Made by a program: the position numbers and the translations under genes | Notes under the pieces: generated by a model | What the model was told of the DNA's origin: nothing | What the model saw: only the letters and a program-made list of their open reading frames with translations | Databases searched by the model: none | In this document: one piece after another, positions 1-63,134 of the stretch | Layout of the letters: each line of letters starts with the position of its first letter | How positions within the stretch are numbered: the first letter of the stretch is position 1 | Assembly (NCBI GenBank): GCA_044221705.1 | Contig: JBGAOR010000013.1 | Coordinates: 2,529-66,528 of the forward strand | DNA from: Planctomycetota bacterium | Lineage (GTDB): Bacteria; Planctomycetota; UBA1135; GCA-002686595 | DNA length: 64,000 nucleotides | Direction: 5' to 3'

Positions 1-725
1 ACTCCCTCGTGCACGCCGCCCATCGCCGCGCTTCCCAGGACCAGCAGGACCGGGTCTGGCGCACGCTCGTCGAGCGGCAGATCGGCGCCGTCCGTGCCGG
101 GATGGCGCGCGAGTTCCTCCTCGGGCTGGAGCTGGCGCAGCTCGACCCGGCGCGGATGCCGCGTCACCGCGAGCTGTCGGCGAGGCTCGCGTCGCTGTGC
201 GGCTGGCGCATCGAGACGGTGCCGGGGCTGATCCCCGCGCGCGACTTCTTCGACCTGCTGCGCGACCGGCGCTTCCCCTCGCCGGAGTGGATCCGCCATC
301 CCGACGACCTCGAGTACACGCCGGCGCCCGACGCGTTCCACGATCTCTTCGGGCACGTGCCGCAGCTCGCCTCCGCGGAGTACTGCGCGATCCTCGAGGA
401 GCTGGCCGCGGCGGCGCGCGGCTCCAGCGACGCGGAGCTGCTCGAGATCGAGCGCGTCTACTGGTTCACGATCGAGTTCGGGCTCGTGCAGCAGGGCGCC
501 GAGGTGCGCGCGATGGGCGCGGGGCTCGCGTCGTCGATCGCCGAGCTCGACCGCGCGCTGCACGCGCCGCACGTGCGCCGCCGCCCGTTCCTGATCCACG
601 AGGCGCGCCACGAGCGCTTCGAGAGCGACCGGCCGCAGGAGCTGTACCTCGTGGCGCCGGGCCTCGCGCCGCTCTCGGCGTCGCTCTCCGCGCTGGGATC
701 CGCGAACCGGCGCCGCGCGGGCTGA
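1..725 (+). CDS. phhA: phenylalanine-4-hydroxylase (aromatic amino acid hydroxylase); 5' end lies outside the window
   Basis: The ORF 9..725 translation has the iron-site region [14 protein letters not shown] and [11 protein letters not shown], typical of bacterial PhhA. The frame is open to the window edge. Confidence 0.85.
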
Positions 726-799
726 CCGCGGCCCGTCCGCGGGACGGAAAACGCTTCCGTCTTCGGATCGCGAGGGTCGCGAGTCGATGCAGGGAGGTC

Positions 800-2863: not shown

Positions 2864-2904
2864 TCGCTTCGGTCGCGGGCGGGCCGCCGGTTAGCCTCGG
2901 CGGC

Positions 2905-3516
2905 ATGCCGAACGAGTACTCGCCCTGGCGACCGCATCCCTGGCACGGGCTCGAAGCCGGTCCGGACGTGCCGCGGCGCGTCTTCGCGTTCGTCGAGATC
3001 ACGCCGTTCGACGGCGTGAAGTACGAGGTCGACAAGCGCACCGGCTACCTCAAGGTCGACCGCCCGCAGGGTTCCTCGTCGCTGCCGCCGATGCCGTACG
3101 GGTTCGTGCCGCGCACGTACTGCGGACGGCGCGTGGGCGAGCTCATGCCCGGGACACGCGGCGGCGACGGCGATCCGCTCGACGTGTGCGTCCTGACCGA
3201 GCGGCCGATCTCGCGCTCGGAGATCCTGCTCGAGGCGCGCGTGGTCGGCGGCATCCCGATGCGCGACGCGGGGCTCGCCGACGACAAGATCGTGGCCGTT
3301 CTGCACAGCGACGAGCTGTATGCGCGCGTGCAGGAGCTCGCCGACGTGCCCGAGGTCATCCTGCGGCGGCTCGTGCACTACTTGCGCTACTACAAGGCGC
3401 TCCCGGGGCGAGACAATCCGGTGGTGCTCGGCGATCCGTACGACCGTCGGCACGCCGAGCACGTGATCGAGGCCGCGCTGGCCGACTACCGCGAGGGGTT
3501 CCCCCGCGCGGATTGA
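2905..3516 (+). CDS. ppa: inorganic pyrophosphatase (family I)
   Basis: The translation [17 protein letters not shown] ... [10 protein letters not shown] ... DDKIVAV matches the soluble PPase signature. ATG 2905 is in frame within the long ORF 787..3516. Confidence 0.9.
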
Positions 3517-8851: not shown

Positions 8852-8891
8852 GGGGCGGAGAGGATAGCGGCGGCCGCGCGCGGCGCCGCGC

Positions 8892-9890
8892 TCAACTCGC
8901 AGCCGAAGCCGCGGCGACGGCCGCAGCCGTGCGCTGCGCCGCGAGGATCGCCACGATCCGCGTGATCGCACTGGCCTCCGCCTGCGGGCCCTTCCCGGCC
9001 GCGCCGCGCGAGAGCTCGATCTGCGCCGTGCCCGCCGCGAGCGCGAAGCTCGTCGTCTTGCCGGGCTTCGGGGTGAGCGCGGCGATGCGCGCGCGGTGCT
9101 CGGCGACGACGCTCACGACCTTCGCGGCCGGTTCCGGCGCGAAGCACAGGAGCGCGATCTCGTCGTAGTCGGCCGTGCCCATCCACAGGCCCGAGTCCTT
9201 GAACGCGGTGTAGAGCGCGTGGAAGCGCGCGCACAGCGCCCCGGCCGGATCGCCCTGCAGGAACAGGACGAGCGCGGCCGTCTGCAGTTCGTCGTTGCGG
9301 CCGAACCCGCGCGCGTGGAGCCCCTGGAAGATCTCCTCGACGCGGCGCGCGATGGCCTCCGGTTCGCCCGGCGCCTGCGCGAGCAGCGCGCACAGCGGCC
9401 AGTCCGACTTCTGCGTGAGGATCGGATGGTCCTTCTTCAGCGCGTCCCAGATGCGCCCGAGCCGCGCGACCTGATCCGCGCCGACGCGGCCGTCGGGCGA
9501 GCTCTCCAGCAGGGCGAGGATCGCCAGGACCTCCTCGGTGCCGCCGGAGAAGCGCCAGCGTTCGCGGAACAGGGCCGTCGCACGCTCGACCTCGGCCTGC
9601 ATCGCCGCGACGCTCGTGCCCGTGCGCAGGAGCCAGGCCGCGAGCAGCACGCCCACGCTCGATCGCCTGTACCAGGGCTGCGAACGCCTCAACTCCTCCG
9701 CGGTCGCCGTGAGGCGCCGGGCCAGCTCGCGCGGATCGCCCGGGATCGTCACGAGCGCCAGCGCCGAATGCCGCAGCAGGTCCGCGGACTCCAACCAGCC
9801 CCGGCCGACCTCGAGCTCGGCGTAGATCTCGGCGAAACGTCCGACCGGATCGGCCGGCGCGTGGGTGTTCGCGGCGTTCATCGTGTGCAT
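8892..9890 (-). CDS. hypothetical protein (possibly DUF4003-like)
   Basis: 332-aa ORF with strong GC3 and non-artefactual composition. It sits 10 nt downstream of the TerC gene and 40 nt upstream of the GH38 gene on the same strand. I am not confident of any family assignment. Confidence 0.6.
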   Translation of the reverse strand: MHTMNAANTHAPADPVGRFAEIYAELEVGRGWLESADLLRHSALALVTIPGDPRELARRLTATAEELRRSQPWYRRSSVGVLLAAWLLRTGTSVAAMQAEVERATALFRERWRFSGGTEEVLAILALLESSPDGRVGADQVARLGRIWDALKKDHPILTQKSDWPLCALLAQAPGEPEAIARRVEEIFQGLHARGFGRNDELQTAALVLFLQGDPAGALCARFHALYTAFKDSGLWMGTADYDEIALLCFAPEPAAKVVSVVAEHRARIAALTPKPGKTTSFALAAGTAQIELSRGAAGKGPQAEASAITRIVAILAAQRTAAAVAAASAAS

Positions 9891-9899
9891 CCTCGGGCC

Positions 9900-10658
<759 letters not shown>

Positions 10659-47486: not shown

Positions 47487-47669
47487 ACGGCGGAGAACGC
47501 TGGCCGCGGCGCGGAGCGATCGCCGAGACCGAGCACCGCCGCGGCCGGGAGGCCCGGAACCCGCGTGGAACGGCGCGCGGAAGTGCATACTGCGCGGAGT
47601 TCGGCGCCGGCCGGTGCTAGGAGGCCCCGCCTCCCCGTCGAACCGATCCCTCGCGATGGACTCCAGCTC

Positions 47670-48542
47670 ATGATCGGCACCCTGATCCTCCTCGGCGCCC
47701 TGTGCGCCCTCGCGACCCTCGCCTGGGGGCCGGGCATGCACCTCGAGTACGCCGAGCGCGTGCACCGCCGCCGCCGCGAGCTCCTGCCCGCCGACGTCGC
47801 GAAGCTCATCGACGCGGAGCGCGCGGCCTTCGACTACGGCAACCTCGCGGCCGACATCATCAACTTCAAGGCGTTCGGCGGCGCGTACAGCCACTGCCAC
47901 CGCTGGGCCATCGTCGAGGAGATGCGCGAGCTGTCGACCTCGCCGCGACAGGAGGCGTTCGTGATGGGCTACCTGTCGCACCTCGCGGCGGACACGATCG
48001 CGCACAACCACTTCGTCCCCTACCACCTGGCCCGCTACGCGCGGACGAAGGGGCTCGGGCACCTGTACTGGGAGCTCAACGCGGACCGCTTCGTGCCCGA
48101 GGCGCGCTGGTCGCGCGTCGCCGGCTTGAAGAACCAGGACGCGCTCGAGGAGCTCGACGACCTCGTGAACCGCACCGTGCCGAAGAAGGCGCTGTCGATG
48201 GGCACGAACAAGGTCATCTTCAACCACGTGCTGCTCGTGTCCGAGCGCGAGCGCTGGCGCGGCGCGATGGCGCGCATCCACCCGATCTCGATGGTCACGC
48301 TCGAGAAGGGCTTCCTGCGGATGTTCCAGGCCGCCGCGGTCGACCGCATCCGGCTCGCGCTGCACCCGCGCGGCTTCCGCGCGATCCAGCGCGTCGACGC
48401 CAACGGCGCCGAGGCGCAGAAGAAGGCGATGAAGGTGCGCACGGGCATCCTCCAGCGCCTCGTCCCGCGCCAGGTGCGCACGGAACGGGCGGAGGAGAGC
48501 GCGCTGGCGTTCCTCGAGGGGATGCAGTCGCCGCCGCCGTAG
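47670..48542 (+). CDS. zinc-dependent phospholipase C-like family protein
   Basis: N-terminal hydrophobic segment, then WGPGMHLEYAE, DYGNLAADI, YSHCHRW and GYLSHLAADTIAHNHFVP, which fits the His/Asp metal-ligand pattern of the family. ATG 47670 preferred over the ORF-track start 47565. Confidence 0.7.
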   Translation: MIGTLILLGALCALATLAWGPGMHLEYAERVHRRRRELLPADVAKLIDAERAAFDYGNLAADIINFKAFGGAYSHCHRWAIVEEMRELSTSPRQEAFVMGYLSHLAADTIAHNHFVPYHLARYARTKGLGHLYWELNADRFVPEARWSRVAGLKNQDALEELDDLVNRTVPKKALSMGTNKVIFNHVLLVSERERWRGAMARIHPISMVTLEKGFLRMFQAAAVDRIRLALHPRGFRAIQRVDANGAEAQKKAMKVRTGILQRLVPRQVRTERAEESALAFLEGMQSPPP

Positions 48543-48551
48543 GCGCGGGGG

Positions 48552-50468
48552 CTAGAAGCGGAACCAGCGCAGCACGAGGTCCGTGCGGTCGCCGTCGCCG
48601 TTGAAGTCCGTGCCCGCTCCGCCCTGCTGCGCCTCGGACGCGATCAGCGCGACGCAGTCCTTCGAACCGAAGCGCGCGAAGTCGACGACGTCGCGCGGGA
48701 GGTCGGAGGCCACGCTCAGGCCGAACGTCGCGCCGGTCGTGACGTTCGTGCGCTCCAGGATGAAGTCCATCTCGTCGCCGTCGGCGTTGATGTCGCGCGA
48801 GTCCTCGACCTCGGACATGCGGTAGAACGCCCAGCCGCCGGCCTGCGTCATCCCGGCCGAGTCCTTGTCCAGCGCCAGGAGCGCGCCGGGGAACACGAGC
48901 CGGTTCGACGAGAAGAACGCGAAGGTGGGGATCGCGTCGTTCACGTCCGTGTCGCCCGGGACCTGGGCCGTGCCCTGGTTCAGCGACACGTTGCCGATGC
49001 GCTCCGTGAACGCGACGCCCAGGCGGTTCTCGGACTCGCGCGGCGAGATCCACGAGGCCTCGACGACCTCGGTACCGCTCGAACCGTGGAAGAAGTCCCA
49101 GTTCGCCGAGCTCGGCGACGGCGAGAGCCAGCCGACCAGGTTCGCGTCGAGCGCGTTGTTCGCGTCGATGTCTCCGCCCGTGGCTTCGCTGGAGACGATC
49201 ACGAAGCGGTTCGAGAGCTCGTACAGCCCGTGCCCGCCGCCCGGCACGTCGAACAGCGCGCGGATCTGCGCGGCCGTGTTGATCGGCAGGATCGGCTCCG
49301 TCAGGGGGTCGTCCGAGATCGCGAGCCAGCGCACGACGCGGTCGTCCGAGGCCCCGTCGTTGTTCAGGTCGCAGGTGTCGTCGCCCTCGGCCACGATCGT
49401 CGCGACGTAGTTCCCGGCGAACGCGATGCGCTCGCGGCCGGCCAGACCGTGGTTGACCGGCGGGTTCATCGCCGGGTCCGCGTTCCAGGCGCCGAACGTC
49501 AGGACGCAGAGGACCTGGTCGGTCGAGTCCGTGTCGTTCGCGGCGCAGTACGCCGGACGGAAGCTGGCACCGACCGCGGCCGAGTTGAGGCTGCCGACGC
49601 CCTGACCGGCCTCGCTGACGAGGAAGCCGACGTGCCAGTCGCCGGCCGCGATCGTCTTCGCGCGCCGCGGGCTGGCCGGATCGACGGCGCGCGCGGTGCA
49701 GCGCGCCACGCTGGTGCTGCTCGTGCCGTCGAGCAGGCCGAGCACGTTCGCGTCGAGGGAGTCGACGTCGCCGTTCAGGCTGCGACCGGCCAGCGTCTCG
49801 TCGAACGCCAGGAACACGAGGCCCTCGTCCTCGCCCAAGAGGCGCGGCGAGAGCTCGCTCACGGTGTCCGCCGTCGCGACCGGGATCGGGACGAGAGGCG
49901 CGCTCGACTCCACGAAGCGCAGGTTGCTGCCGCCGACCCCCGCCGTCGCCGTCTTGGCGGCGTAGACGATCCGGCTGCCGAGACCGAGCACGGCCAGCAC
50001 GGCGTCCGTGGAGAGATCGTCGACGTACACGAGCGTGGGCGCCGCCTCGGACCAGTGCAGCAGCACGTCGTCCGCCTGCATCATGTCGCCGTTCCAGTCG
50101 CGCCCGTCGCGGCCTTCGTCGACGGCGATGTAGAGCTCGTTGCCGGCCCAGGCCACGTCGTCGGCGGCGACGCCCAGCCGGAACTGCGTGTTCGCGGCCG
50201 TGTTCACGACGTGCGCGACCTGGTCGGCGACGTCCCCGTCGCCGTTCAGGATCGTGCCCGGGTTGCCGCTGGAGCTCGTGGCGTCCTCGGCGGCCAGGAA
50301 CGCGATGTAGGCGCCCGAGATCCGTACCGGCGTCGACCCCGCGGTCGCGACGTTCGTCGAGCGGACCAGGAAGCTGACGTTGGCGGAGTCGCTCGATCCG
50401 CCCGAGCAGGCGGCCGCGGCCAGGGTGGTGGTGAGGATCGCGAGGTGGGTCTGCGTGCGGTTCTTCAT
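48552..50468 (-). CDS. lipoprotein with repeated DxDxDG-type calcium-binding loops (FG-GAP / integrin-alpha-like propeller candidate)
   Basis: ATG 50468 gives MKNRTQTHLAILTTTLAAAAC (lipobox). Recurrent loops LNGDGDVAD, DWNGDMMQADD, LNGDVDSLD, DLNNDGASDD, INADGDEMD and DFNGDGDRTD are spaced through the protein. Confidence 0.7.
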   Translation of the reverse strand: MKNRTQTHLAILTTTLAAAACSGGSSDSANVSFLVRSTNVATAGSTPVRISGAYIAFLAAEDATSSSGNPGTILNGDGDVADQVAHVVNTAANTQFRLGVAADDVAWAGNELYIAVDEGRDGRDWNGDMMQADDVLLHWSEAAPTLVYVDDLSTDAVLAVLGLGSRIVYAAKTATAGVGGSNLRFVESSAPLVPIPVATADTVSELSPRLLGEDEGLVFLAFDETLAGRSLNGDVDSLDANVLGLLDGTSSTSVARCTARAVDPASPRRAKTIAAGDWHVGFLVSEAGQGVGSLNSAAVGASFRPAYCAANDTDSTDQVLCVLTFGAWNADPAMNPPVNHGLAGRERIAFAGNYVATIVAEGDDTCDLNNDGASDDRVVRWLAISDDPLTEPILPINTAAQIRALFDVPGGGHGLYELSNRFVIVSSEATGGDIDANNALDANLVGWLSPSPSSANWDFFHGSSGTEVVEASWISPRESENRLGVAFTERIGNVSLNQGTAQVPGDTDVNDAIPTFAFFSSNRLVFPGALLALDKDSAGMTQAGGWAFYRMSEVEDSRDINADGDEMDFILERTNVTTGATFGLSVASDLPRDVVDFARFGSKDCVALIASEAQQGGAGTDFNGDGDRTDLVLRWFRF

Positions 50469-50572: not shown

Positions 50573-52489
50573 GTGCGCGTCCTCATCGCCTCCGCGCCGC
50601 ATCGCGACACGTTCGGCTACTCGATGCCGCCGCCGGGCCTCCTGCGCCTGGGCGGCTGGCTCGAGCGCGAGGGCGTCGACGTCGCGCTCGTGGACCTGGC
50701 GCACGAGCTGGCCGCGGGGCGACTGCCCGAGGGCGACGGCCTGTGCGATGCCGCGGCGGACCTCCTCCTGCGAGGCGGACCGTTCGACGCGATCGGCCTG
50801 TCGGTGATGGGCGCGACGCTGCCCGCGGGGCTCGCGATCCTGGAGCGGATCCGCGCGCGCGATCGCGCGATTCCGCTCTGGATCGGCGGCCCGGGCACGA
50901 CCGGCGTCGACACCGCGCTCGTCGAGCGCGCGCACTGCGTCGACGTCGTCGTGCGCGGCGAGGGCGAGATCACGACGACGGAGCTCGCGCGCGCGCGCGG
51001 CCTGTCGCCGCACGGCATCGCGGGGCTCACGTGGCGCGACGCCGGCGGACGGGCCGTGCGCGAGCCGGACCGCGCGCCGATCGCCGACCTCGACGCGCTC
51101 GCGCCGTATGCGTGGCATCTCCTGCCGCCGATCGCGGCGTACAAGCGCATCACCGGCGCGGCCGACGGGCTCGTGCCGGTCGACTCGGGCCGCGGCTGCG
51201 TCTACGACTGCTCGTTCTGCACGATCGGGAGGTTCTGGTCGCGGCGCTCGCGCGTGCTGCCGGCGCGCAGGCTCGCGGACGAGGTCGAGGCGCTGCGCGC
51301 GATCGACGGCGCGCACGCGGCGTACCTGTGCCACGACCTCTTCGCGGCGAACCGCGCGCACGCCGTGCAGTTCTGCGCCGAGATGGTCGCGCGCGGGAAT
51401 CCCGTGCCGTGGGAAGTGCGCGCGCGCGCCGACCACCTGGACCGCGAGCTGCTCCAGCTCATGGGGCGCGCCGGCTGCTACCGCGTCCTGCTCGGCATCG
51501 AGTCGGCGGCCGAGAGCGTGCGCGAAGCGTGCGACAAGTCTCTGCGCCCCGGCACGGACCTCCTGACGGTCGTGCGCGACTGCGTCGAGGCGGGCGTGAC
51601 GCCGATCCTGTCGGTGATCCTGGGGCTGCCGGGCGAGGGGCCGGCCGAGCTCGAAGCGAGCCTCGACTTCTGCGCGCGCGCGGCGCTGCTCGGCGGCGTG
51701 AACGTGTCGCTGCACCTCGTGAACCCGCAGCCGGGTTGCACGCTGGGCGAGGAGCACGGCGCGAGCGCGCGCGCGGTGCCGGGGATCCCGCCCGACATGG
51801 CGCGCGGCGCGGGCGAGACGGCGGCGGAGCGCGCCTGGATCGACGCGCACCCCGATCTCTTCACGACGTTCGCGCTGCTCGCCGGCGACCCGGTGGGCCA
51901 AGGCGCGCTGTCCGAGATCGCGAGCGAGCTGCCCGAGGTCCTCCACCGGTATCCGCGCACGTTCGCACTGCTCGGCCGCGCGCTCGAAACGAGCGCGCAC
52001 GGCGGGTTCGCGGCCTGGAAGCGCCACGGCCGGAGCTTCGAGGCCTTCGCGCGCGTCCAGCGCGATCCGCTCGTCGACGACGTGCTGGCCGTCGAGCAGG
52101 CCGGCGTGCGCGCCGCCGCACTGGCCGTGCGCGCGCCGAGCGTCGGCCCGCGCGCGCGCGGCGTGCTCGTCGAGACACGCTGCGACGTGGCCGCCGTGTT
52201 CGAGGCCCTGCGCGGCGGCCGCGAGCTGCCCCGCGCCGAACCGCGCGCGTCCTGGATCTGCGCCGTGCCCGCGGACCCGTCGCGCGCGCTGGCCGGAATC
52301 CGCACACTGCGCGTGTCGGCCGACGTCGCGCGCCTCCTGCAGGCGCTGGACGGCGCGCGCCCGATCGACGAGCTCGAGGCCGCGCGCCCGGGCTTCGCGG
52401 GCGCGATCGCGAGCCTCGAACGCGCCGGCCTCGTGGAATCGGGAACAGGAACGGCCGCCGCGGAGCGGATGGAGACGACGACACCATGA
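50573..52489 (+). CDS. B12-binding-domain radical SAM protein (class B) with a PqqD/RRE-like C-terminal segment
   Basis: GTG 50573 (VRVLIASAPH); GC3 is poor upstream. Rossmann-like B12 domain (IGLSVMGATL ... VVVRGEGE). Canonical CVYDCSFC at 51197..51220. The last 70 aa or so (VSADVARLLQALDGARPIDELEA ... IASLERAGLVE) resemble a winged-helix RiPP recognition element. Confidence 0.85.
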   Translation: MRVLIASAPHRDTFGYSMPPPGLLRLGGWLEREGVDVALVDLAHELAAGRLPEGDGLCDAAADLLLRGGPFDAIGLSVMGATLPAGLAILERIRARDRAIPLWIGGPGTTGVDTALVERAHCVDVVVRGEGEITTTELARARGLSPHGIAGLTWRDAGGRAVREPDRAPIADLDALAPYAWHLLPPIAAYKRITGAADGLVPVDSGRGCVYDCSFCTIGRFWSRRSRVLPARRLADEVEALRAIDGAHAAYLCHDLFAANRAHAVQFCAEMVARGNPVPWEVRARADHLDRELLQLMGRAGCYRVLLGIESAAESVREACDKSLRPGTDLLTVVRDCVEAGVTPILSVILGLPGEGPAELEASLDFCARAALLGGVNVSLHLVNPQPGCTLGEEHGASARAVPGIPPDMARGAGETAAERAWIDAHPDLFTTFALLAGDPVGQGALSEIASELPEVLHRYPRTFALLGRALETSAHGGFAAWKRHGRSFEAFARVQRDPLVDDVLAVEQAGVRAAALAVRAPSVGPRARGVLVETRCDVAAVFEALRGGRELPRAEPRASWICAVPADPSRALAGIRTLRVSADVARLLQALDGARPIDELEAARPGFAGAIASLERAGLVESGTGTAAAERMETTTP

Positions 52490-54738
52490 TCCAACGTCAG
52501 GACTTCCCCGTGAGCCTCGTGTTCCCGCCGCAGGGGCACTTCACGCAGCCCTACCTGGCTCTGCCCTGCATCAAGGGCTGGCTGCGCGCCCACGGGTTCG
52601 ACGACGTCGAGCTGCTCGACGCGAACATCGAGGCCTACGACGCGTTCCTGTCGGGCGACTACGTCGCGCGCTGCGCCGAGCGCGTCGCGACGCGCCTTCC
52701 GCTCGAGCGCTTCGCCGCGCGCGAGTCGCTGGGCTTCCGCGACCTGGCCGCGTTCCGCGCCGCGTCCGAGTGCGCGGCCAGCGGCGCCGCCGTCGCGGCG
52801 CGCATCGACGAAGCCAAGTCGGTGATGCGCGGCGGCGCGTTCTTCGACGCCGAGCGCTACGTGCCTGCCGTGCGCACGATCTACCACGCGCTGCGCATCG
52901 TCTCGGCCGCGCACTTCCCGAGCGAATTGACGCCGCACAACTTCACGATGCGGTACGGCAACGACCGCTCGGCCGAGGTGCTCCTGGCGACGCTCGACGA
53001 GGACGAGAACCCGTTCCTCGCCTTCTACCGCGAGCGCGTGCTTCCGCGGCTCGTCGCGCGCCGTCCGCGCGTGCTGGGCCTCTCGATCATCTACGGCTCG
53101 CAGCTCGTGCCGGCGCTGACGCTGGCGCGGCTCGTGAAGGCCGCGCTGCCCGACTGCCACGTCACGGCCGGCGGCGGGTTCCTGGCCTACATCGGCCGGA
53201 AGCTGATGAACGCGCCGGGCATGGACGCGTGCCTCGACAGCCTGATCTTCCACGAGGGCGAGGCGCCGATGCTCGCCCTGTGCGAGGCGCTGCGCGACGG
53301 ACGCGCGCTCGGGACGATCGGTTCGCTCTCGTGGTTCGACCGCACGGGTGGCGCCGCGCGCCTCGTCGAGAACGAGCGCGGGCACCCGATCCGGCTCGAC
53401 GACGCGCCCGCCCCGGACTTCGACGGCCTGCCGTTCGGGCTGTACCTCAGCCCCGAGATCGTCGTCCCCTACGACGTGAACCGCGGGTGCTACTACGGCG
53501 AGTGCACGTTCTGCACGCTGCCGACCGTCATCGGCCCGGGCTACCGCACGCGCAGCGCGAAGACCATCGTCGACCACGTGCTGCAACTGCGCGATCGACT
53601 CGGGACGAGCCACGTGAACTTCATCACGGACTGCATGCCGCCCGGGCTGCTGCGCGACCTGCCCGAGGAGCTCATCGCGCGCCGCGCCGGCATCCACTGG
53701 TGGGCCGACGCGCGCGTCGAGCCCAAGGCCTACACGAAGGAAGGCTGCGAGCGGCTGGTCGAGTCCGGCTGCCGCAAGCTGCTCTTCGGCTTCGAGACGG
53801 CCACGCCACGCCTCCTGAAGCTGATGAAGAAAGGGCAGAGCCTGAAGTCCGTCGTGGACGTCGCGCGCAACTGCTCGGACGCCGGGATCAGCGTCACGTT
53901 CTTCGCGATGGTCGGGTTCCCGAGCGAGACGCAGGCCGAAGCGCAGGCGACCGTCGACTTCCTGGTCGAACACGCCGACATCGTGCGCGAGGTCTCGCTG
54001 CAGACGTTCCACATCGACGAGGAGAACCACGTCTACCGCAACCCGTCGGAGTTCGCGGTGCGCATCCGCTCCGACCCGACGGCCGACCTGCAGCTCTACC
54101 ACGACTACGAGGCCGAGGTCGGGATGACGCAGGGCGAGGCGGCCGAGATGTTCGAGCGGATGATGGCCGCGCTGCGCGCGCGCTATCCGCTCTTCTCCGG
54201 CGACAACATCTTCTGGTTCATGCAGAAGAGCCACTACTTCCTGCACCTGGCGCGCGGGACGAGCCCGGACGAGTTCGTCGCACGCTGTCGCCGCCGCGCG
54301 GAACGGCGCGCCGACGAGTCGCCGGATCCGACGCTGGCGGTCGGCGCGGACTGCGCGAGCGTCGCGATCCCCTTCTCGTGGGCCGAGGCGGTCGCGGGCC
54401 TCGGCACTCCCGCCGCGCGGGCAGCGCGGCCGGAGTTCCTGACCGGCCGCTACGTGGCCGACGCCGAGGAGCAGGCCGCCGCGGGCCTCGCGCCGCTCTG
54501 GCCGGCGGCGCGCGCGCTCGTCTACTGCGGCGAGACGGCCGAATTCGCCGAGGTGCGGACGGACGGCGCGCGCGCGCTGGCCGCGCTGCGTACGGCGGGC
54601 AACCTCGGCGCGCTCAGCTCGGCGCTCTCCGCGCCCGCGCGCTCGAACCTGGAACGCTTCGCGGGCGAGCTCGCGAAGCGCGGTATCCTCGTGCGCCGCG
54701 AGGAACCCTCCCGCACCACCGTCCGAGGTCCGCGATGA
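52486..54738 (+). CDS. B12-binding-domain radical SAM protein with a CX4CX2C cluster motif and an RRE-like C-terminal segment
   Basis: ATGA overlap with the upstream rSAM stop. N-terminal B12-like domain (LVFPPQGHFTQPYLALPCIKGWL ... LIFHEGEAP). CYYGECTFC at 53488..53514. TIM-barrel core (LLFGFETATPRLLKLMKKG). The tail EVRTDGARALAALRTAGNLGALSSAL ... FAGELAKRGILV is RRE-like. Confidence 0.85.
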   Translation: MIQRQDFPVSLVFPPQGHFTQPYLALPCIKGWLRAHGFDDVELLDANIEAYDAFLSGDYVARCAERVATRLPLERFAARESLGFRDLAAFRAASECAASGAAVAARIDEAKSVMRGGAFFDAERYVPAVRTIYHALRIVSAAHFPSELTPHNFTMRYGNDRSAEVLLATLDEDENPFLAFYRERVLPRLVARRPRVLGLSIIYGSQLVPALTLARLVKAALPDCHVTAGGGFLAYIGRKLMNAPGMDACLDSLIFHEGEAPMLALCEALRDGRALGTIGSLSWFDRTGGAARLVENERGHPIRLDDAPAPDFDGLPFGLYLSPEIVVPYDVNRGCYYGECTFCTLPTVIGPGYRTRSAKTIVDHVLQLRDRLGTSHVNFITDCMPPGLLRDLPEELIARRAGIHWWADARVEPKAYTKEGCERLVESGCRKLLFGFETATPRLLKLMKKGQSLKSVVDVARNCSDAGISVTFFAMVGFPSETQAEAQATVDFLVEHADIVREVSLQTFHIDEENHVYRNPSEFAVRIRSDPTADLQLYHDYEAEVGMTQGEAAEMFERMMAALRARYPLFSGDNIFWFMQKSHYFLHLARGTSPDEFVARCRRRAERRADESPDPTLAVGADCASVAIPFSWAEAVAGLGTPAARAARPEFLTGRYVADAEEQAAAGLAPLWPAARALVYCGETAEFAEVRTDGARALAALRTAGNLGALSSALSAPARSNLERFAGELAKRGILVRREEPSRTTVRGPR

Positions 54739-54926
54739 AGACGCCCGAGAAGAAGAACGACGCCGACCCCGCGCAGAACCCGGCCCGCATCCCCGGCCCG
54801 AAGAAGCGCGAAGAGCGCGGCGCCGAACCGGCCGTGCCGGAGATCGACTTCGCCAAGCTCGACCTGCGGGTGGAGGTCGTGGACGAGCGCATCAGTCCGG
54901 GCGAGACGAACGTGTTCGACAAGTGA
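54735..54926 (+). CDS. 63-aa peptide, candidate radical-SAM-modified precursor
   Basis: ATGA overlap with the rSAM stop. 61 of 64 codons, stop included, end in G or C (exceptions are gaa, gaa, agt). Translation: MKTPEKKNDADPAQNPARIPGPKKREERGAEPAVPEIDFAKLDLRVEVVDERISPGETNVFDK. Two hairpins follow the stop. Confidence 0.6.
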   Translation: MKTPEKKNDADPAQNPARIPGPKKREERGAEPAVPEIDFAKLDLRVEVVDERISPGETNVFDK

Positions 54927-54960
54927 GCCGCAGCCTTGGGCTGCGAACCACGCGTGACGC

Positions 54961-54992
54961 GCGCGTGAGTCCGGGCTGACGACTCACCGCGC
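54961..54992 (+). terminator. GC-rich stem-loop downstream of the rSAM-peptide operon
   Basis: GCGCGTGAGTC ... GACTCAC(C)GCGC, about 11 bp with one bulge. It is preceded by a smaller hairpin, CGCAGC-cttgg-GCTGCG, at 54929..54945. No U tract, which is common in high-GC genomes. Confidence 0.3.
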
Positions 54993-55246
54993 GTCGCTCC
55001 TCGGCCCCGGCGCGCGCCGCCTGCTCACCCCGTCGTCGGCGCCCGCCGGAACGAGCCCAGCCCGGGCCCCCGCCGCCCGGCTCGCCGTCGCCCGCTCCAA
55101 GCCTCCCGGCCCGCCCCTGCCGACTTCCGTAAGGGACCAGTAAGCTGGAACCAGTCCCACCGCGTCGCGGCGACCCGGACCTGGATCGCCTCGGCGCCCC
55201 ACTGGCTCCTTCTCCCTCGGCATCGACCCGGTGCCGGCTCTCTCCC

Positions 55247-57121
55247 ATGAAGCACGCCTGGATTCCGCTCTCGCTCCTCGCCCTCGCCTCCAGCGCTTTC
55301 GCCGAAGGCACGAAGTACGCGCACAAACCCGCGCCCGCAGGAGTCCCCGCCGCGACGCCGCAGCCGGTGACTTCCTTCATCAACGGTTCGGATTCGTGCA
55401 CGACCCCGGACGTCATCGCGGGCCTCGGACCCCACGGGTTCGACAACTCGGCCGCGACGACGGGAGCGGAGGGCCAGACCGACCCGCTGTGCCTGGCGTT
55501 CGGCTCCACCGCGATCGACCAGGACGTGTGGTTCTCGTGGACGGCGCCCTCGAGCGGGACGGCGTTCCTCGACATCTGCTCGAGCGGCAGCACGGTCGAC
55601 ACGAAGGTCGCCGTGTACTCCGGCTCCGGATGTCCGAGCGGACCCGCGATCGGCTGCAACGACGACGCGTGCCCGGGGCTGCAGAGCAACGTGACCTTCC
55701 CCTGCGTGGCGGGCAACCCCTACACGATCCAGGTCGGCACGTACCCGGGCGCGGGCGGCGGCGTCGGTTCCTTCACGTTCACGATCAGCGCGGGCCCGGG
55801 CAACGATTCGTGCACGACCCCCCAACCGATCGCCGGCCCCGGCCCGCACGCGTACGACACGACGTTCGCGACGACGGGCACGCAGGGACAGGCCAACTCG
55901 CGCTGCTTCATCTTCAACACGTCCGCGATCCAGTCCGACGTCTGGTACACGTGGACCGCCGCCGCGAGCGGATGGGTCGCCGTGGACACCTGCACGGGCG
56001 GACAGCACGACCTGCGCGTGGCCGTGTACGCCGGCGCGGGCTGCCCGGTCGGTGAACCGATCATCTGCGACGACGACGCCTGCGGCACGATCGGCGCCTC
56101 GTCGCGCGCTCCGTTCCTGGCCACCGCCGGCCAGTCGTACACGATCCAGGTCGGCAGCTACCCGGGTCAGGCCGGCGCGCCGGGGTTCTTCACCCTGTCG
56201 CCGTTCACCCCCGCCGCGGGCGATTCGTGCAGCGCGCCGATCGACATCGCGGGCGCGGGGCCCTTCAACTGGGACAACTTCGACGGCGTGACCGGACAGG
56301 AAGGCCAGAACGAGGCTCTGTGCTCCAACGAGATGATCACGCACGACCTGTGGTATCGCTGGACGTCGTACTGCACGTCGAACGTGACCGTCACGCTGTG
56401 CGCGCTCTCGAGCCTCGACACGAAGGTCGCGGTGTACTCCGGCAGCGGCTGCCCGGCGAGTTCGGCCCTGGCTTGCAACGACGACGCCTGCGCGGCCGGC
56501 GGACCTTCCTCGGTCACCTTCGCGGCCGTCGACGGCCAGACCTACATGATCCAGCTCGGCTGCTGGCCGGGCGAGACGCCCGGTGCGGGCGCGTTCACGA
56601 TCACGACGAGCTGCCCGCCGCCGACCGGGACCGTCTACTGCATCGGCGACGGCCAGTCGCCGCACACCGCGTGTCCGTGCGGCAACAACAGCCCGACGGC
56701 GGCCGGCGTGGGCTGCCTCAACTCGCTGGGCAGCGGCGGACGGCTGCGCGCATTCGGGAACCCGAGCCTCACCGACGACAACGACGGCTCGGCCTCGGTC
56801 ACGCTGATCGGCAACAGCATGCCCAACAGCTCGTGCCTCTACTTCCAGGGCACGGCGATGCAGAACGCGGGCAACGGATCGGTGTTCGGCGACGGCCTGC
56901 GCTGCGCCGCCGGCTCGATCCTGCGCCTCGACACGGAGTCGAACGTCGCGGGCACGTCGCAGTACCCGAACCCGTCGCAGCCGCTGCCGCTCTCGGTCCG
57001 CGGGAACGTGCTGTCCCCGGGAACGCGCACGTACCAGGCCTGGTACCGCAACGCAGCGGCGTTCTGCACGGCCTCGACGTTCAACCTGTCGAACGGCGTC
57101 GAGATCGTCTGGGCGCTCTAG
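55247..57121 (+). CDS. secreted protein: three tandem Cys-rich domains of about 135 aa plus the conserved C-terminal domain
   Basis: Signal peptide (IPLSLLALASSAFA). Three repeats, each with DSC..P..IAG.GP, DVW(F/Y).WT, DTKVAVYSGSGCP, C(N/D)DDAC and YTIQVG.YPG. C-terminal module 56632..57118 contains ACPCGNN and WYRNAAAFC..STFNLSNG. Confidence 0.75.
   Translation: MKHAWIPLSLLALASSAFAEGTKYAHKPAPAGVPAATPQPVTSFINGSDSCTTPDVIAGLGPHGFDNSAATTGAEGQTDPLCLAFGSTAIDQDVWFSWTAPSSGTAFLDICSSGSTVDTKVAVYSGSGCPSGPAIGCNDDACPGLQSNVTFPCVAGNPYTIQVGTYPGAGGGVGSFTFTISAGPGNDSCTTPQPIAGPGPHAYDTTFATTGTQGQANSRCFIFNTSAIQSDVWYTWTAAASGWVAVDTCTGGQHDLRVAVYAGAGCPVGEPIICDDDACGTIGASSRAPFLATAGQSYTIQVGSYPGQAGAPGFFTLSPFTPAAGDSCSAPIDIAGAGPFNWDNFDGVTGQEGQNEALCSNEMITHDLWYRWTSYCTSNVTVTLCALSSLDTKVAVYSGSGCPASSALACNDDACAAGGPSSVTFAAVDGQTYMIQLGCWPGETPGAGAFTITTSCPPPTGTVYCIGDGQSPHTACPCGNNSPTAAGVGCLNSLGSGGRLRAFGNPSLTDDNDGSASVTLIGNSMPNSSCLYFQGTAMQNAGNGSVFGDGLRCAAGSILRLDTESNVAGTSQYPNPSQPLPLSVRGNVLSPGTRTYQAWYRNAAAFCTASTFNLSNGVEIVWAL
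55382..56630 (+). repeat. three in-frame tandem repeats of about 405 nt (protein-domain repeats)
   Basis: Repeat units start near 55382, 55799 and 56219. Conserved Cys positions and motifs recur at the same spacing in all three. Confidence 0.6.
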
Positions 57122-60351: not shown

Positions 60352-60864
60352 TCAGATCCGGTGCATGAACCGGAACACGCGCTCGTGCATCACGCGCACG
60401 ACGTAGTCGTCCTGGCCGCCGAGGCACTCCATGCAGCGCTTCAGCTCGCCGAACTTCGAGCCCGGCGGCAGCTCGACGGTCAGCACCATGTGGAAGTAGC
60501 CCTCGATCATCTTCTGCGAGATGTCGTGCACGCTGCCGCCGGCCTGCGCGAGCGCGCCGGTGATCTCGGCCAGCACGCCCGGACGGTTCCGCCCCACCGC
60601 GGTGATCACGACGCTCGTCGCCGGATCGTCGTCGCTGGGCTCGGGCAGGTTCGGCAGCGAGCGCCGCGCGCGTTCGGCGTCGGGGCCGCGGTCGGGCGCG
60701 GGCTCGGCGTACGTTCCGCCAGTGCCGGTCACGATCCGCACGCCGAGCTCCTCCGCGACGGAGAGCGCGTGCGGCGTCGCCAGCGTCTCGCCGTCCACGA
60801 CGATCTGCCCGCCGGCCGGAGCCAGGCGGCGCACGTCGTCGGCGGTCAGGTAGCGGCGGGCCAC
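60352..60864 (-). CDS. ACT-domain (UPF0237-like) protein with an N-terminal extension, last gene of the BMC shell operon
   Basis: The C-terminal 90 aa (VVITAVGRNRPGVLAEITGALAQAGGSVHDISQKMIEGYFHMVLTVEL) resemble single-ACT UPF0237 proteins. The N-terminal 45 aa or so (YLTADDVRRLAPAGGQIVVDGETLATPHALSVAEELGVRIV) are of unknown function. GTG start lies 13 nt after the BMC-T stop. Confidence 0.7.
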   Translation of the reverse strand: MARRYLTADDVRRLAPAGGQIVVDGETLATPHALSVAEELGVRIVTGTGGTYAEPAPDRGPDAERARRSLPNLPEPSDDDPATSVVITAVGRNRPGVLAEITGALAQAGGSVHDISQKMIEGYFHMVLTVELPPGSKFGELKRCMECLGGQDDYVVRVMHERVFRFMHRI

Positions 60865-60877
60865 GGCGGTGTCGCGA

Positions 60878-61474
60878 TCAGAGGTGGCGCACGAGCTCGG
60901 GGTGCGGGCGCGGGATCACGACCTCGCGTGCGAGCAGGCCGCGCTCCTGGGCCGCGCGCGCACCGGCCGCGACCGAGCTGCGCACGTCGCTGACCTCGCC
61001 GGTCAGCGTGAAGAAGCTCTTCCCGCCCAGGCCGTTCGCGATGCGCACGTCGATCAGGTCGACCGTCGCCGTCTTCAGCGCGACGTCCGCGCTGGAGATC
61101 GTGGCCGCCACCGTCGTCGTCTCGATCACGCCGATCGCGTCGAGCGTGCCGTTGATGCGTCCACCCTTGCGCTTCAGCATCGGCACGACCTGCTCGTGGA
61201 TCTGCGGGATCACGAGCTGGTCGACCAGGTCGGATCCGGCGAGGGCCGCGCCGCGCGCCGCGCTGGCGCGCACGTCGGCGACGGCGCCCGTGAAGAGCAT
61301 CACGTACTTGCCCGGCTGCACCGGCGTCGAGAAGAGCAGCTCGACGCGCGCTTCCTTGAGCACGGCGTCGGCCACCTCGACGCCCTTGGCGACGCTGGCC
61401 AGCTCCAGCACTCCGATCGCCACGTCGAGCTCGGCGTCGTCGCGGACTTCGGGATTGTGGTCGTTGCGGTTCAT
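60878..61474 (-). CDS. BMC-T shell protein (tandem BMC domains), similar to Haliangium BMC-T1
   Basis: Two BMC domains (AIGVLELASVAKGVEVADAVLKEA ... and AIGVIETTTVAATISSADVALKTA ... GKSFFTLTGEVSDVRSSV). ATGA overlap with the upstream BMC-P gene. Confidence 0.88.
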   Translation of the reverse strand: MNRNDHNPEVRDDAELDVAIGVLELASVAKGVEVADAVLKEARVELLFSTPVQPGKYVMLFTGAVADVRASAARGAALAGSDLVDQLVIPQIHEQVVPMLKRKGGRINGTLDAIGVIETTTVAATISSADVALKTATVDLIDVRIANGLGGKSFFTLTGEVSDVRSSVAAGARAAQERGLLAREVVIPRPHPELVRHL

Positions 61475-61806
61475 GACGTTCCCCTGCTGCCCTTCCCGGG
61501 CCGGTCGTGCTCGCGCGTCGGACCGACGATGCGGCCTTCCTCGAGCTCCATCGTGTCGATGATCGCGGCGATCGCCGTCTGGAATCCGATGTCGTGGCTG
61601 CGGCCGATCGCGTGGCGCGCGGCGCGGCCGAAGACGACGAGCACGCGCTCGCCGATCCCGGCGCCCAGCGGATCCACGGCCACGAGCGTCTCCGCGGATT
61701 CGCGGCCGTCCGTCGTGAACGGGCGCACGACGAGGAAGCGCAGGCCGACGAGGCTCGGGTCCTTCTTCGTGGCCCACACGTTGCCGACGACGGTGCCGAC
61801 GAGCAT
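61471..61806 (-). CDS. BMC-P pentameric vertex protein (EutN/CcmL family)
   Basis: MLVGTVVGNVWATKKDPSLVGLRFLVV ... AVDPLGAGIGERVLVVFG is a canonical EutN/CcmL sequence. Confidence 0.88.
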   Translation of the reverse strand: MLVGTVVGNVWATKKDPSLVGLRFLVVRPFTTDGRESAETLVAVDPLGAGIGERVLVVFGRAARHAIGRSHDIGFQTAIAAIIDTMELEEGRIVGPTREHDRPGKGSRGTS

Positions 61807-62163
61807 CTAGAGGCCTCCCCCGAGCGGCTTGCGCTCGGCGGCGAGCCGCGCCGGATCCCTCATGCGCCAGGATGCGGGCGCGTCGGGCACGTCGAAGTCG
61901 TCGACGATGCCGACGATCGCGGCCTCGAAGGCGAAGTCGCCGTCCAGGCCGAGCTGCGCGACGCGCGCGGCCTTGCCGAACGCGACGACGACGTGCTCGC
62001 CGATCGCGGCGCCCAACGGATCGGCGGCCACGACCGGCGTGACCTTGGGCGCGCCCGGCTCGCGGCGCTCGTCGAGCGCTTCGACCACGAGCAGCCGCAG
62101 CCCGGCCAGGTCCTGGACCTTCTTCGTCGCCCACACCTCGCCCACGACGCGCCCGAGGAACAT
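61807..62163 (-). CDS. BMC-P pentameric vertex protein (EutN/CcmL family), second copy
   Basis: MFLGRVVGEVWATKKVQDLAGLRLLVV ... AADPLGAAIGEHVVVAFG. The start shares one base with the upstream stop (TGATG), and the stop abuts the next start. Confidence 0.85.
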   Translation of the reverse strand: MFLGRVVGEVWATKKVQDLAGLRLLVVEALDERREPGAPKVTPVVAADPLGAAIGEHVVVAFGKAARVAQLGLDGDFAFEAAIVGIVDDFDVPDAPASWRMRDPARLAAERKPLGGGL

Positions 62164-62804
62164 CAGATGCTCCCCGCGTTCGCGCGGCCGCGCAGGCCCT
62201 CGAGCGCGCGCCGCACGGCCTTGACCGCCTCGTCGATCTCCGCGTCCGTCCCGGCGAGGCGCAGCCGTCCGACCGCGCCCTCGGCGCCGAGTCCGACGAT
62301 GCGGATCGGCGAGGCCTTCTCGGCCTCGTTCGCCGCGAGCGTCACGTACACCGCCGGGTTCACCTCGAGCGTGTAGAGCGTGTCGTCGCCCAGGACGAGC
62401 ATCCCCGCGCGCGTCCGGTTGATCATCATCGCGTGGTGGTCGCTGATCTTGCGGATGATCTCGCTCGTCAGGAGGTTCGGCTTGAGCGCGTCCTCGAACG
62501 TGACGCCCGCCGCCTTCAGGATCAGCTCGCCGGCCTGGCGCACCATGCCCTGGTCGGGGCCGTGCACCTCGAGCGTGCCGTAGCTGCGCTCGGTCACGAG
62601 CGCCCCGGGCTTCACGTCGCAGCTCTTCAGCGCGACGTCCATCAGGCGGTTGATCACGATGCCCGGCTGGACCTCGAGCCAGAACGCGGCTTCGCCCGTG
62701 ACGGGGAAGAACCCGTCCGAGTTCGTGGCCACGGTCGCGGCGAACTGCGGTTGCATCTGGTCGATGAACACCGCGCCGCGCAGCTCGATTCCGGAGTGCG
62801 TCAT
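62163..62804 (-). CDS. BMC-T shell protein (CsoS1D-like permuted tandem BMC), similar to Haliangium BMC-T2/T3
   Basis: VFIDQMQPQFAATVA, AFWLEVQPGIVINRLMDVALK, YGTLEVHGPDQG, LAANEAEKA and GRLRLAGTDAEIDEAV match my recollection of the double-stacking trimer family. Confidence 0.85.
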   Translation of the reverse strand: MTHSGIELRGAVFIDQMQPQFAATVATNSDGFFPVTGEAAFWLEVQPGIVINRLMDVALKSCDVKPGALVTERSYGTLEVHGPDQGMVRQAGELILKAAGVTFEDALKPNLLTSEIIRKISDHHAMMINRTRAGMLVLGDDTLYTLEVNPAVYVTLAANEAEKASPIRIVGLGAEGAVGRLRLAGTDAEIDEAVKAVRRALEGLRGRANAGSI

Positions 62805-62843
62805 GCCTCACGTGTCCCGCGGCGGCGCCGCGGGATCCGCGTG

Positions 62844-63134
62844 TCACTTCGTTTCCGGGAGCGGCGGCAGGAAGAGGTCGAGGTCGCCCGCGGGGCGCGG
62901 GATCACGTGCTGGCCGACCAGCTCGCCGACGCGCTTCGCGGCCGCGGCGCCGGCTTCGACGGCGGCCTTCACGGCGCCGACCTCGCCGCGCACGAGCACG
63001 GTCATCAGCGCTCCGCCGCTGCGTTCCTTGCCGATCAACGTGACCTTCGCGGCCTTGCACATGGCGTCCGCGGCTTCGACGGCGCCGACGAGACCCTTCG
63101 TCTCGATCATGCCCAGGGCGATCATGCTGTCCAT
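62844..63134 (-). CDS. BMC-H hexameric shell protein (PduA/EutM/CcmK type)
   Basis: [32 protein letters not shown] ... [15 protein letters not shown] is the canonical BMC domain. Confidence 0.92.

Follow-up and report, generated by a model that had tools for sequence, protein, structure and literature searches.

Ribosomal peptides that are modified by B12 radical S-adenosylmethionine (SAM) enzymes are already known as a kind of system. An example is the aminopyruvatide pathway of Burkholderia thailandensis with the precursor ApyA, in which ApyD, a B12 radical SAM enzyme that contains a recognition element (RRE) for peptides that are made by the ribosome and modified after translation (RiPPs), β-methylates a tyrosine before the C-terminal aspartate (PMC10635010). 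Here we describe a three-gene locus in a stretch of 64,000 nucleotides (the window) from a Planctomycetota bacterium (assembly GCA_044221705.1, contig JBGAOR010000013.1, positions 2,529 to 66,528), in which a gene for a peptide of 63 amino acids directly follows the genes of two radical SAM enzymes with B12-binding domains, called enzyme 1 and enzyme 2 in the order of their genes. The open reading frame (ORF) of the peptide is a genuine gene under strong purifying selection. With moderate confidence we regard its product as a RiPP-type precursor with a nearly invariant core of 13 residues, which would be modified at unactivated carbons by the two upstream enzymes. New are the precursor family, the architecture consisting only of two enzymes with putative RRE tails, a core that hardly varies and the restricted taxonomic range.

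The ApyD/ApyA pair resembles this locus in that a cobalamin-type radical SAM enzyme is fused to an RRE and acts near the C-terminus of a small precursor (PMC10635010); the peptide described here carries Phe-Asp near its end, and ApyD is the top NCBIfam match of enzyme 1. Unlike in the aminopyruvatide system, MNIO, P450 and methyltransferase partners are absent among the neighbours examined here, and whereas ApyA ends in Tyr-Leu-Tyr-Asp, our peptide is unrelated to it, lacks Tyr, has Asp-Lys as its last residues and comes with two radical SAM enzymes. Proteusin systems (TIGR03975; for polytheonamide, PoyB and PoyC) likewise have a ribosomal peptide without Cys-based crosslinks, in which unactivated side-chain carbons of Val, Ile, Thr and other residues are methylated by several B12 radical SAM enzymes. 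The NHLP/Nif11 leader, epimerase, N-methyltransferase and protease of these clusters are absent here, and proteusin cores are long and variable, unlike the nearly invariant 13 residues of the present family.

For bottromycin, the enzymes BotRMT1-3 are reportedly B12 radical SAM proteins that C-methylate Pro, Val and Phe in the core GPVVVFDC. The chemistry of BotRMT1-3 rests in part on a review (PMC9204698). The core of our peptide likewise holds Pro and Val-Phe-Asp, a resemblance which may be coincidence; the C-terminal follower peptide, YcaO protein, amidohydrolase and P450 of the bottromycin system have no counterpart here. PqqA and MftA, the precursors of pyrroloquinoline quinone (PQQ) and mycofactocin, are similar in that they are short, carry an invariant reactive motif at the C-terminus, are processed by a radical SAM enzyme that uses a PqqD-type RRE and yield one fixed product. 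PqqD itself appears near the head of the fold matches for the C-terminal tail of enzyme 2, none of which is significant. However, PqqE and MftC are of the SPASM type and not of the B12 type, the reactive residues are Glu/Tyr or Val-Tyr whereas the peptide family described here has no conserved Tyr, and the conserved peptidases and downstream enzymes of the PQQ and mycofactocin systems are absent. Finally, OxsB of oxetanocin biosynthesis is a radical SAM enzyme that depends on cobalamin and whose cluster motif is CX4CX2C (PMC9204698), as found in enzyme 2. Unlike what is proposed here, it acts on a nucleotide, catalyses ring contraction rather than methylation and has no RRE, and it is not detectably close to enzyme 2 in sequence.

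The peptide gene and its family

The product of the ORF is MKTPEKKNDADPAQNPARIPGPKKREERGAEPAVPEIDFAKLDLRVEVVDERISPGETNVFDK. Its ATG (54735-54737) shares the sequence ATGA with the TGA stop codon (54736-54738) of the upstream gene for a protein of 750 amino acids, and a GAGG sequence is located at 54725-54728, 6 nt 5' of the ATG. The window has a G+C content of 72%, and 96 ORFs of at least 40 amino acids are present in 18 kb. Because of this G+C content an open frame of 63 codons says little, and the case for a gene therefore rests on cross-genome comparison. The codon pattern itself is that of a gene: G+C at the first, second and third codon positions occurs in 44, 26 and 60 of the 64 codons (0.69, 0.41 and 0.94), which is the coding pattern of the adjoining genes, with only GAA (twice), AGT and the TGA stop not ending in G or C. 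In a sliding plot the phase of third-position G+C (GC3) moves from the frame of the upstream gene into that of the peptide at about position 54700. An earlier reading of the locus from its sequence only (the sequence-only reading) had pointed out the start codon embedded in the stop of the radical SAM gene, the coding-like GC3, the absence of Cys, Trp, Tyr and His and a Pro/Lys/Glu-rich N-terminal region of about 35 residues. The overlap at 54735-54738 was seen again, the translated peptide indeed has none of the four residues, and its N-terminal region has the described composition, with Ala abundant as well; the coding pattern also stood, with a GC3 count of 60 in place of the 61 of 64 codons given before.

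Homologues are numerous and closely confined. A word-indexed protein search returned 21 proteins of around 63 amino acids with 98-61% identity, the named sources being metagenome-assembled genomes (MAGs) of Planctomycetota. When every GTDB species was represented by a single genome and scanned with the alignment of the peptides, 96 genomes proved to encode a relative, and the best 80 loci were kept for comparison. Except for one bin labelled Glaciecola, all carriers among these 96 species-level genomes are Planctomycetota or unclassified MAGs. Three carriers are cultured and have complete genomes, namely Saltatorellus ferox Poly30, Engelhardtia mirabilis Pla133 and Rohdeia mirabilis Pla163; in the NCBI taxonomy the genera Saltatorellus and Engelhardtia fall under Planctomycetia incertae sedis. 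The contig labelled as a MAG of the gammaproteobacterium Glaciecola sp. (JBLFXY010000193.1, locus L060) carries the full module of enzyme 1, enzyme 2 and peptide, and is probably a planctomycete binning contaminant. One MAG (isolate 3_bin.35) has near-identical copies of the C-terminal half of the peptide gene and its upstream region on two contigs (L037 and L038), reflecting either a duplication or a redundancy of assembly or binning.

The peptide ORF is intact in 80 of the 80 species loci, without a missing or frameshifted case, and each closes with ETNVFDK followed by a stop codon. The retrieval of these loci used patterns containing ETNVFDK; a hidden Markov model (HMM) search and look-ups that started from the enzymes are free of this bias and agree with the result. 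The HMM search, which used no fixed pattern, covered 1.84 billion representative proteins and yielded 61 clusters, all belonging to this peptide family. Their representatives end in ETNVFDK (55 of 61), ETNIFDK (2), ETNVFDR (1) or ETNVFAK (1), with two read-through or chimeric calls, and distant relatives with other C-termini or cores were not found in this search. Scans of the peptide family against Pfam and NCBIfam at E ≤ 1 gave no match, a Pfam scan of the peptide at E ≤ 10 gave none that was informative, and in literature on Saltatorellus radical SAM proteins, on NVFDK and on Planctomycetota B12 radical SAM enzymes with a precursor peptide no account of the module was found.

Conservation is concentrated at the C-terminus, near where the sequence-only reading had suggested to look (the last 25 residues): the conserved tail comprises the last 26 residues, with the consensus [LM]DLx[VI]Ex[VI][ED]ERIxPxETNVFDK. 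The N-terminal 20-50 residues are hypervariable and unalignable across sub-lineages, so the N-terminal half holds no conserved leader; the only conserved patch there is REERG, limited to the window's own clade. Across the family the peptide is mostly 51-78 amino acids long. What had been described as a beta-strand leader or core with alternating hydrophobic and acidic residues seems to split into two parts, a recognition-like segment LDxxxLDLxVExV and the nearly invariant ERIxPxETNVFDK (for the corresponding residues see Table 1).

The nature of the constraint follows from a codon analysis (Nei-Gojobori proportions) in which the last 26 codons were compared across 80 different nucleotide sequences. 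For the last 7 codons (ETNVFDK) the proportion of synonymous differences (pS) is 0.44 and that of non-synonymous differences (pN) is 0, giving a pN/pS of 0; this is conservation beyond nucleotide drift, the lack of which the sequence-only reading had named as evidence against a gene. For the last 13 codons (ERIxPxETNVFDK) the values are pS 0.44, pN 0.07 and pN/pS 0.15, and for the preceding 13 codons (-26 to -14), which span the greater part of residues 36-50, they are pS 0.52, pN 0.24 and pN/pS 0.46. In this preceding part, positions -22 to -20 (L, D, L) and positions -18, -17 and -15 (V/I, E, V) are nearly invariant. More than one codon is in use at invariant positions, for example ACG (38) and ACC (41) for Thr, CCG (46) and CCC (30) for Pro, and GTC (58) and GTG (18) for Val, and the stop codon is TGA in 38, TAG in 40 and TAA in 2 cases. 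Since synonymous variation is accompanied by near-zero change in amino acids, the constraint acts on the protein and not on the DNA or RNA. These comparative data refute the reading of the ORF as a chance open frame, to which we give next to no probability: frames of such length are common in sequence of 72% G+C, but the GC3/GC2 phase is that of coding sequence, all 80 loci are intact with synonymous and without non-synonymous change, and 61 HMM clusters exist among 1.84 billion proteins.

Directly 3' of the peptide stop codon two GC-rich hairpins of 7 bp and ca. 18 bp are found (54929-54997; minimum free energy -45.7 kcal/mol, z-score -2.5 relative to shuffled sequences), which may mark the end of the operon. 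A simple terminator scan passed over them because they have no U-tract. Scanning 50-56 kb for consensus promoters and terminators found none, which is unsurprising in view of the G+C content and of promoters that are not of the sigma-70 consensus type. An Rfam scan of the entire window detected neither an RNA family nor a cobalamin riboswitch.

The two radical SAM enzymes and their C-terminal tails

Both enzymes score above the Pfam gathering thresholds for the B12-binding domain (PF02310; 44.7 bits for enzyme 1 and 37.8 bits for enzyme 2, cut-off 32.1) and for the radical SAM domain (PF04055; 56.1 and 66.4 bits, cut-off 29.5), and they share 28% identity over the core. For enzyme 1 a protein of 638 aa (P0142) is listed in NCBI with 100% identity over the full query, the two strings not being exactly equal, possibly at the start residue only. 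For enzyme 2 more than 390 homologues with 60-99% identity were found, and the sources named among the matches listed are Planctomycetota or unclassified. The three cysteines of the [4Fe-4S] cluster motifs, the canonical CX3CX2C in enzyme 1 and the variant CX4CX2C in enzyme 2, are invariant in the family alignments (Table 1).

Among NCBIfam models, the best match of enzyme 1 is the equivalog ApyD (NF050148) with 183 bits, to be compared with a cut-off of 750, and TIGR03975 (rSAM_ocin_1) gives 61.8 bits. For enzyme 2 the best matches are the ApyD model with 110 bits and TIGR03975 with 102 bits (cut-off 281.85). The match to the ApyD model covers only positions 24-429 of 645, that is the B12 and radical SAM core, and a SPASM domain is not detected in either enzyme by Pfam or NCBIfam. 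By sequence the two proteins belong to the class of B12-domain radical SAM enzymes, of which the nearest named relatives modify peptides; they rank as relatives of the named RiPP C-methyltransferase families, not as members. The closest solved structures are those of AprD4, 9ccb, TsrM and TokK.

Beyond the catalytic core both enzymes carry a tail of around 110 residues which is less conserved than the core. AlphaFold2 (AF2) models of the tails, computed with family alignments, are confident. The enzyme 1 tail is modelled with a predicted local distance difference test score (pLDDT) of 89 and has the order β-α-β-β-α-α-α; the enzyme 2 tail (pLDDT 81) ends with β-β-α-α-α. In a Foldseek search of the PDB with the enzyme 2 tail, the top seven matches are all RRE proteins, none of them significant (E 0.35-2). 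They include TbiB1 with bound leader (5v1u/5v1v; probability 0.85, E 0.35), PqqD (3g2b) and the lasso peptide protein B1 (6jx3), and for several of the seven the solved structure includes a bound leader peptide; CteB, a sactisynthase, comes further down the list. The same search gave no meaningful match for the enzyme 1 tail. In PDB profile searches the enzyme 1 tail gave only weak matches to winged-helix proteins (FurB, E 0.03; the RRE protein PbtF, E 0.84), and the enzyme 2 tail gave only noise. With hhalign the two tails align in register at E 8.8e-4, with a probability of just 23%. Pfam at E ≤ 10 detected neither PqqD nor another informative match in either tail or in the N-terminal extension of enzyme 2. 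On these results the assignment of an RRE is suggestive for the tail of enzyme 2, and the tail of enzyme 1 is no more than compatible with one.

Linkage and gene neighbourhood

Linkage was examined by tblastn of the window's proteins against all peptide loci, and the gene map is based on GC3 and on Pfam and NCBIfam matches (Table 1). The order enzyme 1, enzyme 2, peptide is found in 72 of 80 species loci, or in 72 of 74 once loci with insufficient upstream DNA are set aside; in six loci (L017, L026, L027, L036, L046 and L049) the contig is too short upstream for both enzymes. The linkage also holds in the opposite direction: six loci reached through homologues of enzyme 2 (61-66% identity, including the complete Engelhardtia mirabilis genome) all have a gene for 53-64 amino acids directly downstream, and the five that were translated all end in ER[IV]xPxETNVFDK. 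The module is kept even where the identity of the enzymes drops to ca. 56-60% and the flanks are reshuffled. Because the flanking genes vary among lineages, the minimal conserved module consists of three genes, and it contains no other conserved gene that is a candidate substrate. Seven loci have an insert of 1.2-3 kb between enzyme 2 and an intact peptide gene. In L019 this insert holds an ORF that looks by eye like a transposase (8775-10181, minus strand) and a small membrane protein (8315-8806, plus strand), and in L039 it encodes an unrelated secreted protein.

Table 1. Positions of the module and its neighbours in the window.
Feature	Position	Strand	Remarks
Zn-dependent phospholipase C	47583-48542	+	
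Predicted lipoprotein	48552-50468	-	ca. 638 aa; LAAAAC lipobox; many D-x-N/D-x-D-G-D repeats; divergent from enzyme 1
Radical SAM enzyme 1	50573-52489	+	638 aa; B12-binding and Radical_SAM domains (Pfam)
CX3CX2C motif of enzyme 1	51197-51220	+	CVYDCSFC, residues 209-216; invariant in 120 sequences
C-terminal tail of enzyme 1	52145-52486	+	residues 525-638; possible RRE or winged helix (AF2 model)
Radical SAM enzyme 2	52486-54738	+	750 aa; B12-binding and Radical_SAM domains (Pfam); stop overlaps peptide start
CX4CX2C motif of enzyme 2	53488-53514	+	CYYGECTFC, residues 335-343; three Cys invariant in 121 sequences
C-terminal tail of enzyme 2	54403-54735	+	residues 640-750; RRE-like (AF2 model)
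Peptide gene, putative RiPP-type precursor	54735-54926	+	63 aa; ATGA overlap, GC3 pattern, homologues, codon-level purifying selection
Peptide residues 1-35	54735-54839	+	hypervariable, hydrophilic, Pro/Lys/Glu/Ala-rich (alignments, peptide list)
Peptide residues 36-50	54840-54884	+	EIDFAKLDLRVEVVD; moderately conserved, hydrophobic/acidic alternation (codon analysis)
Peptide residues 51-63	54885-54923	+	ERISPGETNVFDK; nearly invariant (codon analysis, HMM search)
Two GC-rich hairpins	54929-54997	+	directly 3' of the peptide stop
Protein with galactose-binding-like and PPC domains	55247-57121	+	624 aa; after a gap of 320 nt from the peptide

Downstream of the peptide, a gene for a multihaem cytochrome c (Cytochrome_C554/C7-like) starts within 1.5 kb in 31 of the ca. 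70 loci with enough sequence, and is usually followed by a protein with a VWA domain and by the nuo (complex I) operon. In L019, L021, L023, L026, L029, L033, L034, L044 and others the cytochrome is found about +10 to +500 nt past the peptide stop, and in L009 cytochrome oxidase genes are located upstream. In L057 and L063 the peptide gene lies at ca. 9.9-10.2 kb of the locus and the downstream cytochrome c and VWA genes are kept, together with nuo in L063. Cytochrome c, VWA and nuo genes were searched for in the window and are absent; its own clade has the 624-aa protein downstream of the peptide instead of cytochrome c. Saltatorellus ferox has unrelated flanks, with a histidine kinase gene on the opposite strand after the peptide.

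Upstream of enzyme 1 and on the opposite strand, the divergent lipoprotein is present in roughly 40 of the 80 species loci (29-75% identity) and has no Pfam or PDB match. It was considered as a fourth component of the module and counted as a neighbour, since roughly every second locus is without it and it has no detectable homology. Further downstream, the window holds a shell locus of a bacterial microcompartment (BMC) at 60352-63134 and probably to 63980 on the minus strand, which encodes EutN/CcmL pentamer proteins and proteins with BMC domains as well as one with an ACT domain; L001, a syntenic locus, has an aldehyde dehydrogenase gene after it. In Engelhardtia mirabilis (CP036287, L008, positions 338-3330) FecCD, Peripla_BP_2 and ABC_tran domains indicate a BtuCDF-like ABC transporter about 5 kb upstream of the module, noted in this locus alone, which might import cobalamin or a siderophore.

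Proposed function and alternative explanations

The gene order and the ATGA overlap, both directly visible, would fit co-transcription of the three genes and translational coupling of the peptide to enzyme 2. For the peptide as a precursor we propose that the RRE-like tail of each enzyme docks the peptide, with LDxxxLDLxVExV joining as an additional β-strand. Residues 36-50 would thus act as the recognition sequence of the enzymes, a role suggested by analogy to leader motifs that are bound by RREs, and ERIxPxETNVFDK would be the core that undergoes modification. This segment would enter the active sites, where a 5'-deoxyadenosyl radical may take hydrogen from unactivated side-chain carbons. 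By analogy to ApyD, PoyC and BotRMT1-3, the likeliest outcome would be C-methylation mediated by cobalamin, with Phe, Val, Ile, Pro, Thr and Asn among the possible targets. Methylation of Tyr by ApyD is a concrete analogy for Phe61 in the sequence V-F-D-K and should be taken as a lead, not as a result. The low family scores, and the CX4CX2C motif in enzyme 2, leave room for radical reactions of another kind, especially for enzyme 2. The core contains no Cys, Trp, Tyr or His, and any modification must therefore hit unactivated carbons or side chains of Asn, Asp, Lys, Ser or Thr. Modification at unactivated carbons had been suggested in the sequence-only reading, which is partly supported: the gene is real, the linkage to the radical SAM genes holds and the tails show an RRE-like order, and the modification itself would follow by analogy.

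Several points weigh against a modified precursor. Modification of the peptide is a prediction by analogy, and a hypervariable N-terminal 'leader' is unusual among RiPP precursors. In L057 and L063, from two species-level MAGs, the 10 kb upstream of the peptide hold no radical SAM gene. No leader peptidase or other protease, transporter or immunity gene is conserved across the lineages examined; in RiPP clusters a leader peptidase or exporter is common, not obligatory. The RRE assignment is statistically insecure, with a best Foldseek E value of 0.35 for the enzyme 2 tail, no fold match for the enzyme 1 tail and no PqqD match in Pfam. In sequence the enzymes are far under every named NCBIfam cut-off, and their chemistry is not readable from homology. 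Cobalamin binding is likewise predicted from domain homology, and to our knowledge AprD4, the closest solved relative, is not cobalamin-dependent.

Some of these points would equally suit a peptide that serves the two enzymes as a scaffold, chaperone or accessory subunit, their substrate being instead a lipid, a small molecule or some other protein. This explanation, of which the sequence-only reading had named the accessory or scaffold form, we consider unlikely. Co-occurrence and translational coupling fit a subunit just as well, a protease and exporter are not conserved, the enzymes reach the cut-off of no characterised family, and the closest solved relatives AprD4, TsrM and TokK act on small molecules. 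On the other hand, a conserved tail of 26 residues on a disordered and hypervariable N-terminus is improbable as a structural subunit, and conservation is maximal at the extreme C-terminus, as in a reactive core. Moreover, both enzyme tails have an RRE-like topology, that of a domain known for binding precursor peptides, and the best family-level matches are peptide C-methyltransferases.

The neighbourhood bears on a further explanation, rather unlikely in our view, in which the peptide is an unmodified small protein with a cellular role of its own, in many lineages tied to cytochrome c, VWA and NADH dehydrogenase genes, and sits beside the radical SAM genes only through synteny inherited in one clade. 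It would account for the cytochrome c gene within 1.5 kb downstream in 31 of ca. 70 loci, usually with VWA and nuo, and for L057 and L063, which keep this downstream context without nearby radical SAM genes; all carriers are of one lineage, and synteny could be historical. Against it, the linkage to the radical SAM genes (72 of 74) is far steadier than that to the cytochrome, the window's clade and the Saltatorellus group keep the three-gene module without the cytochrome context, and the module survives the divergence of the enzymes to ca. 56-60% identity in reshuffled flanks.

It is quite improbable that the peptide is a regulatory leader or ribosome-arrest peptide whose C-terminal 20-26 residues act in the exit tunnel at the stop codon and control the downstream gene. 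The pattern of a variable N-terminus and an invariant stretch of exit-tunnel length up to the stop codon would suit this, the arrest peptides SecM and TnaC showing a similar pattern of conservation, and in several loci the next gene begins -10 to +20 nt from the stop. But the downstream gene is not constant, being cytochrome c in 31 of ca. 70 loci, in the window the 624-aa galactose-binding-like/PPC protein, which is separated from the peptide by 320 nt with hairpins, and in Saltatorellus a histidine kinase on the opposite strand. TGA and TAG are about equally frequent, so that no particular release factor is needed, and the constant partner of the peptide is the pair of upstream enzymes, not a downstream gene.

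For the RiPP-type precursor, the near-invariance of the core across the clade indicates one fixed product and not a diversifying family of antibiotics. Together with the absence of an exporter, immunity gene or protease and the frequent cytochrome c, VWA and nuo genes, the near-invariant core distinguishes the module from typical antibiotic RiPPs and raises the possibility of a fixed product with a physiological use. In a more specific form, which is speculative and to which we assign a low probability, two cobalamin radical SAM enzymes would act on a core without the usual reactive residues to give a fixed intracellular peptide-derived cofactor or modified protein factor of Saltatorellus-type Planctomycetota, tied to cytochrome c, VWA and complex I.

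If the peptide is a substrate, the module represents a new RiPP-type family that consists of two cobalamin radical SAM enzymes with putative RRE tails and a precursor, with B12 radical SAM chemistry at sites where it is still poorly charted. The three cultured carriers make the module readily testable. Its core of 13 residues is almost constant over no fewer than 96 species in a lineage of planctomycetes that has hardly been studied, and a product that varies so little points to a conserved role in physiology rather than to a weapon under diversifying selection.

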